A DNA stretch of 64,000 bases, taken from NCBI GenBank assembly GCA_017478515.1, contig JAFVDH010000004.1:172-64171 (forward strand), read 5' to 3'. This DNA comes from a bacterium (GTDB taxonomy: Bacteria > Cyanobacteriota > Vampirovibrionia > Gastranaerophilales > Gastranaerophilaceae). How positions within the stretch are numbered: position 1 is the stretch's first letter; every line of letters starts with the position of its first letter. Below are positions 33,153 through 54,162 of this stretch, piece after piece. The notes beneath the pieces are model-generated. The model saw nothing but the letters and a program-made list of their open reading frames with translations, searched no databases and was not told the origin of the DNA. The position numbers were made by a program, and so were the translations under genes.

Positions 33153-33340
33153 TTGAATATTCTCCTTTTTATTATTTTATCACAATCTGTTGTTATATTT
33201 TTTGTAATCATTTTTAATCAACAGCTGCTATCTATTAAATAATTACAATATTTTTAAACCAAAATGAATATATTACCAAAATATAAAAGGTTTTATTTTT
33301 GTAAGTAAAATTTAGAACATATTGTCAAAAAAGAAATGTA

Positions 33341-33571
33341 TTAAGAAATATTGCAAATCTGAAGAATGCTGCCAATACGGAGTTGTGGCGATTTGAAACA
33401 AAAATGTTAACTTTTGTAAATATGAATTTTAAAATGGCTGAAACTCAAGTATAATGCCCTATATGATATGATATGATATGATGGGATGGGGATACTAAAG
33501 TCTTTTGACCATGTTGCCGACATGAAAAGTGTTAGGACAAAGCAATATAGGAAAGTCAAAGGAATAAAACA
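33341..33571 (+). repeat. Upstream cassette copy 1 (homologous to 52794..53016)
   Basis: By-eye alignment. About 90% identity from acttttgtaaatatg (33409) to the ATG, with one 10-bp indel near the RBS. Weaker similarity for ~70 bp further upstream. Confidence 0.85.
33496..33523 (+). promoter_or_regulatory. FliA/sigma-28-like promoter TAAAGTCT-N12-GCCGACAT
   Basis: Compare the consensus TAAAGTTT-N11-GCCGATAA. Lies 48 nt upstream of the ATG at 33572 and is conserved in the second cassette. Confidence 0.45.
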
Positions 33572-34174
33572 ATGGGTATTTCAGCAAATCAGGCAAGATT
33601 AATGACGTTAACAGCAAGACAACATGATTTAGAGTTAAGAGCTCAACAGATTTCTGCAAAAAAAATGGTTCTATCTCTGCAATCTCAACAATTTGCTACT
33701 GCTTATTCCGCTTCATTAAACGAATATAGTCTTATGAAAAATGGCTCTTCTACTGTAGAATATGTAACTGAGACTGAATCTGTGGTAACAGGTTATGAAT
33801 ATGATGGTGTGACTTATTCTGATATAATGGATATTCCTTATAAAACTGTGGTTACCGGTAAAGATGATGATGGTAATGAAATAACTGAAGAGCAGCCAAG
33901 AACTGCTGATGATGAAGGTGTTACAGTTTTGACAGAGGATATTCCTACAGAATATGCTACTCGTAATTATACTGATGAAGAAACGTCAAGTTTCTTGAGT
34001 ATTACTAAGGGCAATTATGATAGTGCAATGACTGCTCTATCGACTCAAGAAAAAATTATGGATATGGAATTAACTCAAATTAATACTGAGCATCAGGCTG
34101 TTAAAACCGAATATGATTCTCTAAAATCATTGATAGGTGATAATGTTGATAAATCATTTAATATTTTCGGATAA
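33572..34174 (+). CDS. Hypothetical 200-aa protein: helical Gln/Leu-rich termini around an acidic Thr/Glu/Asp-rich centre; no signal peptide
   Basis: ORF directly after the cassette, with RBS aaaggaa. Confidence 0.6.
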   Translation: MGISANQARLMTLTARQHDLELRAQQISAKKMVLSLQSQQFATAYSASLNEYSLMKNGSSTVEYVTETESVVTGYEYDGVTYSDIMDIPYKTVVTGKDDDGNEITEEQPRTADDEGVTVLTEDIPTEYATRNYTDEETSSFLSITKGNYDSAMTALSTQEKIMDMELTQINTEHQAVKTEYDSLKSLIGDNVDKSFNIFG

Positions 34175-51930: not shown

Positions 51931-52695
51931 TTGCTTATGCTGGCAAAATTTGTTGACGTGTTAAATACATCTATTGCAAATGTTGCTCTTAAATATATGG
52001 CAGGAAGTTTCTCTATTTCTGATGATGAAAGTCTTTGGATAGTAACAATTTTTTTTATATCATGCATCGTATTACTTCCTGAAACAAAGTGGTGTTGTAA
52101 AGTTTTTGGCAGAAAGAGGTTCTTTTTATTCTGTTTATATTTCTAAATTGGAACTTACCAGTTTAAGTTCATTTCTTTTGCTTTGGGTTGTTTTGTGTTT
52201 TTAAATTTAAATTTGATGTTTGCGTTTGGAAATGTTATAATTCCTAATTTGATTGTTTGATTGTTCTTTTTGTTATGACTATGATAATTATTCCTACGAT
52301 TACGATTATTTTTTTTTGATTTATCCAATCAAGAAATGGCAAATGCGTCTACTTTACAGAATCTTATTAAAAATGTAGGATGTGCCATCGGAACTTTGTC
52401 TGTATGTGTATTTGTATCTCGATATTCTAAGGTATACCAATCATATCTTGTCGATAAACTCTCTTTGTTAAATGATGCTTTTGTCGGAAAATTTACTGCA
52501 TTAGCAATGAATTTCGCTAAAAACGGAGCTGATTTTATATCTGCTCAAAATATGTCAGGTGCGATGCTTTATAACCAACTTATACAACAGTCGGCTCTTT
52601 GTGCATTTATGCATACTTATATGATTTATGCAATTATTATGCTGATTATTTCTGCTATGGTTTTGATATTAAAAAAAGTTAGGTATGATAATTAA
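51931..52695 (+). pseudogene. Decayed EmrB/QacA-type MFS efflux transporter (N-terminal ~70 aa and C-terminal ~120 aa survive; central TMs lost or scrambled)
   Basis: FVDVLNTSIANVALKYMAGSFSISDDESLWIVT..FGRKRFF matches the EmrB N-terminus. 52336..52695 matches the last TMs. The region between has stops in every frame. Confidence 0.7.
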
Positions 52696-52793
52696 AAAGT
52701 AAACATAATTGTGCATTGACAATGGAAATATTACTTAATACTAAAGAGCGTGTTAATGTTGTCCTGACTTCCAATTCTAAAACAGGAATTTTG

Positions 52794-53016
52794 TTAAGAA
52801 ATGTTACAAACTTGAAAACTGTTGTAAATACTGTAGCACAGCGATTTCTAATAAAATTGTAAACTTTTGTAAATATGGATTTTAAAATGGCTGAAACTCA
52901 GTTATAATCACCTATATGATATGATATGATATGATGGGATGGGGAGTACTAAAGCTTTTTGACCATATTGCCGACATGAAAAGTGTTAGGAATAAGGCAA
53001 TATAAAGGAGAAAACA
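52794..53016 (+). repeat. Upstream cassette copy 2 (homologous to 33341..33571)
   Basis: See copy 1. TATAAT at 52903-52908, pentamer tract at 52915-52944. Confidence 0.85.
52950..52977 (+). promoter_or_regulatory. FliA/sigma-28-like promoter TAAAGCTT-N12-GCCGACAT
   Basis: Same geometry as 33496..33523. Lies 39 nt upstream of the ATG at 53017. Confidence 0.45.
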
Positions 53017-54162
53017 ATGACTTTAGTATCAAAAATGATGAATGTTCGTGAAAATGTGGTTTTAGGTAGTCTTAATTTAAAAAACACTCCAATAAATAAT
53101 CAACCAGCTACTACAAATACATCCGAAACACCTCAATCAAAAGATGATGTTGATTTAGTAGTTATAACAGGAAAAGACGATAATATAGAAGGAGCTTTAG
53201 GAAATTTATTATCAAATAATGATTCTCTTATAGACAGAATTGCATCAAAATTGAATGGGCTTTTTGGAGCTGAAAAAGCTGAAAAACAAGATCGTGGTAC
53301 AGAAGCTGTTAGAGATTATCAAGTCTTAACCGATGAACAACTTGCAGCAGAAATGGAAGAATTACTTAAAAAGAAAGCTGACATAAAACAACAAATTGCT
53401 GAATGTAAAGCAGATACTAGTATTCCATATTCAAGGAACCTAAAAGCAATTGATTTAGAAAAACAATTGAACCAAATAGAAACAGAGATAAAAGCGTGTG
53501 AAGAAGAAATGAATAGAAGAAGCAACTCTTCAAACTCTTCATCTCCGTCAGGTCTACAAAACCTTTCTAATTCTTCGGAGTTAGTAGTTGAAACAGGACA
53601 TTGGAAAAATCTTAGTGTATCTGAGCTTATTCAAGAATATAAAGAACAAGTCCAAGCTAAGCTAAAAGACTTACAAAGACAACTTGATGAAGCTAAAACT
53701 GCCAAAAGTGAAGCGGAAAGTAATGGATTATCAACAAAGTTAACAATGATTATTAATGCTAAGATAGCTGTATTAACTGCAAAAATAAATAGTTATAGTG
53801 GTATAATTCAACAATATAACAGTGAATTAGAAAGAAGAGGTTCGAATATACGTATTCAAGACGATGGAAGTATAATGGGAACACTTGAAAACAGTAATAA
53901 GCCTGAATTGAATAATGATATGAAAAATTTAAGTCCTCTATGTTCTATGTCTACAGATGAGCTTAAATCAAAACATGAAGAATTAGTTAAAAAGCAAGAA
54001 GAATTGGAAAAACAACTTGATGCTGCTAAATCTAAAATTAGTAATAATGCAAAAGAAAATGTACTTAATCATTTTGAAATACATAATTTAACAAAGCAAT
54101 TAGAACATATAAAAACTGAAATAAAAGAAATAGAAGATGAACTTGCAAGAAGAGACTCTTAA
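53017..54162 (+). CDS. 381-aa coiled-coil protein with three ~70-80-aa internal repeats, FlxA-like in composition; no signal peptide
   Basis: Repeats start near YQVLTDEQL, WKNLSVSEL and LCSMSTDEL. Each ends in ..E(M/L)xRR(S/G/D)S. AAGGAG RBS. Confidence 0.6.
   Translation: MTLVSKMMNVRENVVLGSLNLKNTPINNQPATTNTSETPQSKDDVDLVVITGKDDNIEGALGNLLSNNDSLIDRIASKLNGLFGAEKAEKQDRGTEAVRDYQVLTDEQLAAEMEELLKKKADIKQQIAECKADTSIPYSRNLKAIDLEKQLNQIETEIKACEEEMNRRSNSSNSSSPSGLQNLSNSSELVVETGHWKNLSVSELIQEYKEQVQAKLKDLQRQLDEAKTAKSEAESNGLSTKLTMIINAKIAVLTAKINSYSGIIQQYNSELERRGSNIRIQDDGSIMGTLENSNKPELNNDMKNLSPLCSMSTDELKSKHEELVKKQEELEKQLDAAKSKISNNAKENVLNHFEIHNLTKQLEHIKTEIKEIEDELARRDS

Follow-up and report, generated by a model that had tools for sequence, protein, structure and literature searches.

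The 30-nt pentamer tract that occurs twice in the window (the whole stretch of DNA analysed, 64 kb) very probably represents the first bases, about +1 to +30 of the predicted transcript, to be transcribed from a separate sigma-70-type promoter, hereafter P1, and not an accessory of the sigma-28-like promoter that follows it (rough probability 0.85). The window comes from a gut or rumen Melainabacteria genome. We regard it as equally well founded that P1 and the tract make up a cassette found throughout this lineage of gut and rumen Melainabacteria, ~90-135 nt before many different orphan genes, and that the tract is a maintained pentamer microsatellite evolving by slippage, in which RTAKG units grade into G-rich units.

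Two copies of the cassette and the architecture of P1

An exact match search located TATGATATGATATGATATGATGGGATGGGG (30 nt) twice in the window, at 33462-33491 and 52915-52944, both on the + strand, and none of 100 shuffled sequences contained a match. At the same places TRF reported 4.4 copies of ATATG with 100% identity (33461-33482 and 52914-52935), which are the only perfect period-5 arrays with at least four copies in the 64 kb. An earlier reading made from the letters of the sequence (the sequence-only reading) had described two identical tracts of period 5 with a sigma-28-like -35 just 3' of each, and both observations were confirmed. The pattern TAAAG-N15-GCCGACAT, hereafter P2, has two matches in the window, against 0.08 expected by chance, and each lies 5-6 nt 3' of a tract. 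A sigma-28 (FliA/SigD) promoter has a TAAA -35, a spacer of ~15-16 nt and the -10 GCCGATAA; P2, with GCCGACAT as its -10, agrees with this layout and is a predicted sigma-28 promoter. The two tracts belong to the two copies of a ~200-nt cassette (copy A, 33337-33540; copy B, 52790-52995), one tract in each, and the ORFs downstream of these copies are unrelated to each other. The elements of the two copies are as follows.

33337-33402, + strand: copy A, distal conserved upstream region, which aligns with 52790-52855 and with locus L002
33403-33420, + strand: copy A, HLR1-like box AATGTTAAcTTTTGTAAA with one mismatch; on the opposite strand it reads as two direct repeats of 8 nt, 2 nt apart
33428-33455, + strand: copy A, predicted promoter P1, TTTAAA-16 nt-TATAAT; promoter scan score 10/12
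33456-33460, + strand: copy A, GC-rich discriminator GCCCT; such a lead of 4-6 nt, with a pyrimidine and then a purine, is found in all cassettes
33461-33491, + strand: copy A, period-5 array, four ATATG and two ATGGG units; predicted +1 to ~+30 of P1
33496-33523, + strand: copy A, sigma-28-like promoter P2, TAAAG-N15-GCCGACAT, from a pattern match
33500-33510, + strand: copy A, pyrimidine stretch GTCTTTTGACC within the P2 spacer, complementary to the Shine-Dalgarno (SD) region at 33555-33563
33572-34174, + strand: copy A, gene of a 200-aa protein whose N and C helices are conserved and whose insert is variable
52856-52873, + strand: copy B, HLR1-like box ATTGTAAAcTTTTGTAAA, no mismatches to WWTGTAAM-NN-WWTGTAAM
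52881-52908, + strand: copy B, predicted promoter P1, TTTAAA-16 nt-TATAAT, from the promoter scan
52909-52913, + strand: copy B, discriminator CACCT, from the comparison of cassette sequences
52914-52944, + strand: copy B, period-5 array, four ATATG and two ATGGG units, from TRF and the exact match
52950-52977, + strand: copy B, sigma-28-like promoter P2, TAAAG-N15-GCCGACAT, from a pattern match
53017-54162, + strand: copy B, gene (ORF) for a 381-aa coiled-coil-like protein

The cores of copies A and B differ at 11 of 139 aligned columns. The identity of the tracts amid a divergence of ~10% had been put forward as an argument against a neutral microsatellite, and this argument proved weak when taken alone. 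The probability that a given 30-column block misses all 11 differences is 0.06, and that of an identical run of at least 35 columns anywhere in the cassette core is 0.41; the identity of the two window tracts is therefore in itself no proof of selection.

P1 combines an HLR1-like box with a weak -35 (TTTAAA), which is separated by 16 nt from a perfect TATAAT, and a GC-rich discriminator comes next; its TTTAAA-N16-TATAAT module is conserved in 35 cassettes. The box lies at about -59 to -42 of P1, centred near -50, and consists of two 8-nt direct repeats separated by 2 nt. Using WWTGTAAM-NN-WWTGTAAM at a fixed offset and with up to two mismatches, we found it in 26 of the 30 distinct modules. 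Read in reverse complement, this motif corresponds to the HLR1 motif of cyanobacteria, (G/T)TTACA(T/A)(T/A) taken twice. HLR1 is defined by two such repeats with a 2-nt spacing, is bound by RpaB, and is activating when centred near -51 (PMC6525291). The boxes at 33403-33420 and 52856-52873 match it on the opposite strand with one and no mismatches, respectively, as candidate sites, and their location at the activating position of RpaB supports P1 as a genuine regulated promoter. As far as can be read from the DNA, a weak -35 combined with a putative activator box in class I position is a coherent promoter design. The likeness to HLR1/RpaB promoters, in repeat layout and in the centre at ~-50, concerns the box upstream of P1 and not the tract. 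A direct repeat of the response-regulator type, as the sequence-only reading had proposed, is found in the cassette in the form of the HLR1-like box, but it is not the tract, from which it lies 40 bp upstream. Unlike the HLR1/RpaB promoters, the cassette carries a pentamer array and its host is non-photosynthetic; we know of no HLR1 promoter with a pentamer array.

Association of the array with P1 and variation of its units

A metagenome collection was scanned with TTTAAAATGNCTNAAACNNANNTATAAT, a pattern that represents the P1 module only and contains no base of the tract. The scan returned 29 loci, and in 28 of them a period-5 array starts 4-6 nt after TATAAT; in the sole exception, L048, the rest of the P1 module is missing. 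An nhmmer profile of the 60-nt module recovered one additional strong copy, in L031, and an array stands behind that copy too. Moreover, when a regular expression for at least three RTAKG units was applied to 445 kb of related DNA, all 30 arrays found were directly behind P1 or a P1 variant. Overall, each of the 35 strong P1 copies, which come from many species, has the array. The module-only scan and the position of all 30 arrays behind P1 thus indicate that the tract is part of the upstream module. No gene for a complementary (TCATA)n antisense RNA was found in the 445 kb, where every array lies sense-oriented behind P1.

The distances within the cassettes follow the same pattern. The start of the array is fixed at 4-6 nt from TATAAT, whereas its end lies 3-26 nt from the next element, the sigma-28 -35 included. 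The 5' base of the array is a purine that follows a pyrimidine, 5-8 nt past the -10, and a purine start at this distance is the normal geometry of a sigma-70 start site. Among the readings proposed earlier, the fallback fits best, namely that a transcript started at the upstream TATAAT would have the tract as its 5' end.

A sigma-28 promoter is present in only about one third of the P1 cassettes, some 20 cassettes having none, and the array stands behind every strong P1 module whether or not a sigma-28 promoter is there; this distribution does not support the tract as an accessory of the sigma-28 promoter. A canonical TAAAGTTT-N12-GCCGATAA lies upstream of ~17 distinct loci of the 200-aa protein family, and the TATGA repeat is absent from these ~17 sigma-28 promoters, none of which has the TATAAT module. 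Within this family the tract was found in two loci only, L001 and L002, both with the TTTAAA-N16-TATAAT module; in L001 the sigma-28 promoter is degenerate, but TATAAT and the tract are retained. The expectation that the tract would recur in orthologous promoters therefore failed at these ~17 orthologous or paralogous sigma-28 promoters. It should be noted that the TAAA-N16-GCCGAYA that follows the window tracts resembles FliA/SigD promoters and is canonical in the orthologous loci; the difference from FliA/SigD promoters with UP or activator sites is that the tract does not accompany the sigma-28 promoter. Full flagellar gene sets occur in some Gastranaerophilales (PMC4040986), which makes a sigma-28 regulon plausible.

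We then compared the arrays themselves. Read as RTAKG, most cassettes have ATATG units, L032, L036, L041 and L046 have GTATG, L044 and L059 have a mixture of GTATG and ATATG, and L043 and L049 have ATAGG; in the TATGA register they read TATGA, TATGG or TAGGA. The pure part of the array measures 10-42 nt, i.e., 2 to 8.4 units, and its 3' side grades into G-rich units (ATGTG, GTGGG, GCGGG, ATGGG), which in the window are the TGGGA-TGGGG of the tract. For example, L037 has the TGGGATGGGGAGTAC tail and the sigma-28 promoter of copy B but n=5, and L047 has n=2, the tails of both being TGGGATGGG(G/A)A as in the window. Whole-unit differences also separate the ortholog pairs L045 vs L050/L056, L051 vs L044, and L033 vs L038. 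Among contigs of the same species (L060, L062 and L063, from at least two further samples) n=4 is constant; in such contigs the cassette is either 100% identical or the contig ends there, L063 and L064 breaking at the cassette. Changes by whole units, as in phase variation, are thus seen between homologous cassettes (n=2-8), with none in the three same-species contigs. The unchanged repeat number reported earlier for the two window copies holds within the species; elsewhere the number ranges from 2 to 8 and the unit sequence changes as well.

Two other origins of these sequences were considered. The P1 pattern had zero matches in viral contigs, and a pattern that includes the tract matched a single contig, L061, which carries a variant cassette; a phage origin was rejected on these grounds. 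Similarly, a sigma-54 reading of TGGCTGAAAC was discarded by eye, for there is no -12 TTGC element.

Possible functions of the array

If the tract is indeed the initially transcribed segment of P1, it could act on the polymerase that has just started there, through sigma-70 recapture and pausing. We propose this mechanism tentatively and rank it first among the candidates, as possible and short of probable. Each unit would recreate a -10-like hexamer, TA[T/G]G[A/G]T, on the non-template strand, and a sigma-70 still present on the early elongation complex might be recaptured repeatedly by the tandem hexamers. The outcome would be a promoter-proximal pause or a slow escape, with place and duration set by the number of units, and the paused enzyme, at ~+15 to +35, would cover the sigma-28 -35, so that the two promoters would be coupled.

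In the predicted P1 transcript, TATGAT occurs at +2, +7, +12 and +17. The -10 positions T-12, A-11 and T-7 are kept in all three unit types, and the variation falls on hexamer positions 3 and 5, which are weakly recognised positions of the -10. Sigma-dependent pausing requires a -10-like element in the early transcribed region (PMC9191641), and the predicted leader offers such hexamers on the non-template strand. The last T of each hexamer is that of the next unit. The cassette resembles lambda PR' in having a -10-like hexamer within the first ~25 transcribed bases, behind a consensus -10 (PMC9191641). The promoter spacer is also unusually conserved, and in PR' the spacer is the binding place of Q. 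It differs from PR' in carrying 2-8 overlapping hexamers at 5-nt steps and not one, and in how far the TNYG motif is offset. The cassette has no known Q-like factor; pausing is here a prediction, and we do not claim membership of this system.

Several observations speak against pausing. TANNNT arises by chance in roughly half of AT-rich pentamer repeats, by our own estimate. A single -10-like element would suffice, which leaves 2-8 tandem units unexplained, as are the invariant G at unit position 4 and the G-rich tail. The TNYG motif lies 10 or 15 nt from the hexamer starts, compared to 13 nt in lambda PR' (PMC9191641). Finally, the 10-nt length quanta of one class of cassettes (the GCAAT class, described below) point to DNA geometry, and the pairing of the G-run with the 16S tail, equal to that of the true SD, points to a role at the RNA level.

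Such a role might consist in a 5' leader platform on P1 mRNAs, formed by the AU-rich tail (AUAUG)n and by the G-run as a Shine-Dalgarno mimic, an explanation that we regard as rather doubtful. The platform could serve for 30S/S1 standby docking, for a 5' protection like that of STAB-SD, or for a periodic RNA-binding protein. It would make up for the pyrimidine stretch, which partly sequesters the SD, and the shorter sigma-28 transcripts would have none of these parts. The pairing energies are consistent with this proposal. In 27 leaders, the G-run pairs with the 16S 3' tail at a mean of -7.0 kcal/mol, like the true SD (-6.9), compared to -2.9 for the mid-leader; the SD-like G-run of copy A reaches -6.9 kcal/mol. 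Pairing of the SD region with the pyrimidine stretch that follows the G-run is stronger than in shuffled sequences (mean z -1.4), with z<-3 in 7 of the 27 leaders. Copy A is among these: its GTCTTTTGACC, which is carried by P1 transcripts only, pairs with the SD region at -10.8 kcal/mol (RNAduplex; z=-3.05 against shuffles). The SD is mostly paired in P1 leaders (mean unpaired probability 0.34) and, in the sigma-28 class, its predicted unpaired probability is 0.43 in P1 transcripts vs 0.58 in P2 transcripts. The tract itself is free of pairing with the rest of the leader. A precedent is provided by hmw1A of H. influenzae, where a 5'-UTR repeat works with a G-rich region (PMC12721329).

However, a generic AU-rich tail needs no pure and exactly periodic units, and the 10-nt length quanta are left unexplained by an RNA platform. 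Sequestration of the SD is weak or absent in about one third of the loci, including copy B, whose leader shows no pairing with the SD (z=+0.64). The tract is merely ~45% unpaired because of an AU self-hairpin, and there is neither an Rfam match nor a conserved structure. TRAP and CsrA do not fit as the periodic RNA-binding protein, since TAGGA units contain no AUG and TATGA units contain neither GGA nor NAG.

Other RNA-level readings were examined and rejected. An anti-SD role of the tract was discarded, since it is the pyrimidine stretch 3' of the G-run, and not the tract, that pairs with the SD. A conserved RNA structure was rejected, as the tract forms a weak AU self-hairpin only and has no Rfam match; against Rfam 15, three tRNAs alone reached the gathering score in the window, and nothing appeared at E<=1 in either cassette. 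The ORFs that begin at AUGs of the tract end between -89 and +44 relative to the main start codon and encode no conserved peptide, and TAGGA units have no AUG at all, which disposes of a coding or upstream-ORF function. CsrA/TRAP-type sites were rejected on the lack of GGA and NAG triplets in TATGA units. TRAP sites are made of (G/U)AG triplets with 2-3 nt spacers, 9-11 units in all, in 5' leaders. The resemblance lies in the 5-nt period within a 5' leader and in the rare (UAGGA)n, which can be read as UAG plus a 2-nt spacer. The window tracts have 4-6 units and no in-register NAG, where a TRAP site has at least nine triplets 2-3 nt apart; across cassettes, the TATGA and TATGG units contain no NAG and the units number 2-8 as opposed to the 9-11 of TRAP.

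The array could alternatively act at the level of DNA, as a spacer that determines how far, and in which helical phase, the next control block lies from the P1/HLR1 module. A change of one unit (5 bp, half a turn) would then tune or switch the gene in the manner of a contingency locus. We consider this unlikely, although one class of cassettes speaks for it. The cassettes were divided into those in which the G-run is followed by a sigma-28 promoter and those in which it is followed by a related block, GCAAT(T/C)TTT...TTTTTACATG, the GCAAT class. Measured from the end of TATAAT to GCAAT, the cassettes of the GCAAT class give 30, 31, 40, 40, 40, 41, 41, 41, 45, 50, 51-52 (seven cassettes), 60 and 61 nt. 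Of 13 independent groups, 12 fall at 0-2 modulo 10 (p=0.0017), which suggests DNA helical geometry. The same total of 51-52 is kept despite a different mix of AT-rich and G-rich units (e.g., L031a and L031b both measure 51, with ATATG vs AGGTG). Moreover, the TTTTTACATG part of the block equals a forward HLR1 half-site: a forward TTACA at +63 to +82 is found only in this class with its quantised lengths, and it faces the upstream TGTAA sites at -41 and -51. The whole-unit differences between ortholog pairs and the richness of the units in flexible TA and TG steps are in line with a spacer or switch, for which the vlhA (GAA)n promoters and the hmw repeats are precedents.

On the other hand, no preferred phase is seen in the sigma-28 class, to which both window cassettes belong: both parities occur, and 7 of 11 are in phase (not significant). 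There is also no known partner protein. With 4-5 units, the arrays are short for slippage at a high rate, and n=4 is constant in the three same-species contigs, which come from at least two further samples. Besides, a spacer needs neither pure repeats nor a start exactly at +1.

It is improbable that the array is a neutral microsatellite that arose once in an ancestral initially transcribed region and has been copied with the cassette ever since, functionless. Unit number and unit type do drift among loci, the identity of the two window copies is statistically unremarkable, and weak P1-like promoters of other lineages (L019, L021-L024) would, to judge from their sequences, work with no array. 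Yet the array is present in all 35 strong P1 copies, although the 5'-UTRs downstream of it can no longer be aligned across species. The arrays are near-pure and keep a constant start point after a change of unit (TATGA, TATGG, TAGGA), and total length is constrained in the GCAAT class. The 35/35 association, the purity and the constancy of the start after unit turnover make neutrality unlikely.

The weakest explanation is that of the sequence-only reading, in which the tract forms repeats for a winged-helix regulator or an UP-like element and activates the adjacent sigma-28-type promoter: its location at ~-39 to -68 of the predicted sigma-28 start and its 10-bp sub-periodicity would suit such a role, but the absence from ~17 sigma-28 promoters of the same gene family that have no P1, the ~20 cassettes with a tract and no sigma-28 promoter, the distance to the -35 that varies (3-26 nt) where that to TATAAT is fixed, and the differences in unit sequence and number among cassettes of one regulon make it highly improbable. 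In place of the A/T-rich block that accompanies a promoter at ~-40 to -60 as an UP element, the G-rich GGGATGGGGA adjoins the -35. Nor does the tract resemble an OmpR/PhoB-type site, in which direct repeats of conserved sequence recur every 10-11 bp at a fixed position relative to the regulated promoter, as its units vary in sequence and number (2-8) and its position is tied to P1 and not to the sigma-28 promoter.

Comparison with known repeats and the genes behind the cassettes

Repeats in promoters and 5'-UTRs are already known, as illustrated by the hmw1A and vlhA genes. In H. influenzae, the 5'-UTR of hmw1A/hmw2A includes a transcribed (ATCTTTC)n repeat accompanied by a G-rich region, and repeat number modulates expression (PMC12721329). 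The cassette shares with it a simple repeat beside a G-rich region in what is here a predicted 5'-UTR. In hmw, however, the repeat and the G-rich arm form an RNase III hairpin and the copies number at least 11 (PMC12721329), whereas the repeat of the cassette cannot pair with the G-run, has 2-8 copies and starts at the predicted +1. In Mycoplasma gallisepticum, the (GAA)n of vlhA precedes the start site by ~40 nt, and activity is confined to n=12 (PMC6258824). Both systems are multigene sets in which a repeat of varying number sits between conserved promoter flanks (PMC6258824), and they differ in that the repeat of the cassette is downstream of the -10 and that several lengths coexist. Our literature search brought up no promoter class whose +1 always coincides with the start of a pentanucleotide array, and a microsatellite that is always at the predicted +1 of a promoter class is unusual.

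The most far-reaching reading, which we think quite unlikely as a whole, is that of a regulon of lineage-specific orphan genes under one promoter design, with the start-region pentanucleotide microsatellite as a programmable element. The number of units would govern sigma-70 pausing and/or the helical phase of an RpaB-like regulator site relative to a second promoter or regulator half-site, and slippage would retune or switch each gene individually. Were this so, the regulon would probably include surface, filament or flagellar-export proteins, one of them with a flagellin-like topology and a hypervariable insert. It would amount to a contingency or tuning system at the scale of a regulon, which has not been described for any bacterial promoter class.

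The cassette is useful beyond this reading. Melainabacteria are the non-photosynthetic sister group of cyanobacteria and are almost entirely uncultured, and to our knowledge nothing is known of their gene control. The analysis defines a cassette that can be searched for, with a box shared with cyanobacteria, a core promoter, a start-anchored repeat, an alternative-sigma promoter and a leader. It provides a handle on promoter-proximal pausing, leader function or repeat-based tuning beyond model organisms, and would mark more than 20 uncharacterised protein families as one co-regulated group.

The cassettes precede >20 different small proteins, none of them in Pfam or NCBIfam, whose start codons lie 87-137 nt from the -10. 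Neither of the two window proteins, of 200 and 381 aa, belongs to a Pfam or NCBIfam family. The 381-aa protein has a sole database relative, a protein 99% identical and from the same species. Homologues of the 200-aa protein come from metagenomes and MAGs only, and their loci are labelled Melainabacteria, 'Cyanobacteria bacterium UBA...', or rumen/gut MAGs. In this family, the N and C termini are near-invariant and the middle is hypervariable. A Foldseek search with the AlphaFold2 model of the 200-aa protein (pLDDT 75.7) returned generic coiled coils only; in the model, the N- and C-terminal parts form a long helical hairpin that carries a beta-rich insert at its tip.

A cassette class with a GCAAT block

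In a second class of cassettes, the P1 promoter and the pentamer tract are followed by GCAAT(T/C)TTT-N(about 15)-TTTTTACATG, which replaces the sigma-28 promoter. Its members are L031, L033–L036, L038–L041, L043, L046, L049, L052, L053, L055, L058 and L061. The GCAAT block can be aligned with the sigma-28 block (GCAAT with TAAAG, CCTTTCGAC with TCTTTTGAC, and TTTTTACATG with GCCGACATG), and its TTTACAT is a forward half-site of HLR1, the cyanobacterial RpaB-bound motif. In these cassettes, the spacer from TATAAT to GCAAT is quantised in 10-nt steps (30/31, 40/41, 50–52 and 60/61; p=0.0017), the single cassette off these steps having a spacer of 45. Sigma-28-class cassettes show both parities of spacer length. 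The GCAAT block may serve as the promoter of another sigma factor, as a regulator site, or at the level of RNA only.

More than 20 different small proteins are encoded behind the cassette (L031–L059 ORFs), none of which belongs to a Pfam family. The N terminus MNIT..A.PSF.AK.KKN is common to the downstream proteins of L033, L034, L038 and L039, and MIYP to those of L031 and L040. It is our impression, and only that, that many of these downstream proteins start like flagellar-export substrates.

The family of the 200-aa protein and its sigma-28 promoters

The gene downstream of cassette A belongs to a family represented by loci L003–L029 (alignment A2):
Window 33572–34174, + strand: gene for the 200-aa protein

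Members range from 113 to 348 aa; their N terminus (MGISANQARLMTLTARQHDLELRAQQIS) and C terminus (...TEYDSVKSLIxDNVDKSFNVFG) are near-invariant, and the middle is hypervariable. No relative was found in Pfam, NCBIfam or PDB. In the AF2 model of the window protein, a helical hairpin carries a beta-rich insert at its tip, a predicted topology that is flagellin-like. Several paralogues occur per genome, each preceded by a canonical sigma-28 promoter, and the family may represent a novel protein that forms filaments or is exported.

Downstream of the sigma-28 promoters (window 33524–33571 and 52978–53016; L006–L024), each leader carries two or three GGA/AGGGTA motifs, one of which overlaps the Shine-Dalgarno sequence (e.g., GTTAGGACAAAGCAATATAGGAAAGTCAAAGGAA); such leaders presumably resemble CsrA-regulated flagellin leaders. 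Tract-free family loci (L006–L011, L019 and L021–L024) possess a conserved (G)AAACCATGATGAACATGGAGTTT element immediately 5' of the sigma-28 −35, ~30 nt upstream of TAAAG. It contains the palindrome CCATG-N5-CATGG and holds the same place relative to the promoter as the tract does in the window. This element may correspond to the tract in function or be ancestral to it (ATGATG...ATGG).

Cassette flanks, assembly breaks and a viral-classed contig

Three further features were recorded:
Window 33337–33402 and 52790–52855: cassette homology 5' of the HLR1-like box, ~65 nt
Window 52336–52695: 119-aa ORF just upstream of cassette B
L061 9940–10030: variant cassette on IMG/VR contig IMGVR_UViG_3300032167_007567, classed as viral

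The ~65-nt flank contains further half-sites, TTAAGAAAT(A/G)TT(G/A)CAAA and TGTAAATAC-like, and resembles an incomplete tandem copy of the regulator-box region. The similarity of the 119-aa ORF to DHA2/EmrB-type MFS transporters is confined to their C-terminal ~100 residues and falls far short of the family cut-off (E=3.7e-8); the ORF may be what is left of a truncated gene.

Two independent same-species assemblies (L063 and L064, position 1 of each) break exactly at TATAAT or within the tract. Because the cassette is duplicated, short-read assemblies become fragmented at it, and copy numbers in MAGs are therefore probably underestimated. The L061 cassette consists of TTTGCAAGGGCTAAAATCGAGTTATAAT, ATATG x4.4 and GTGGTGGGGTGGGGCAAT; its presence on a viral-classed contig could reflect a prophage, a misclassification, or a host promoter type used by a phage.
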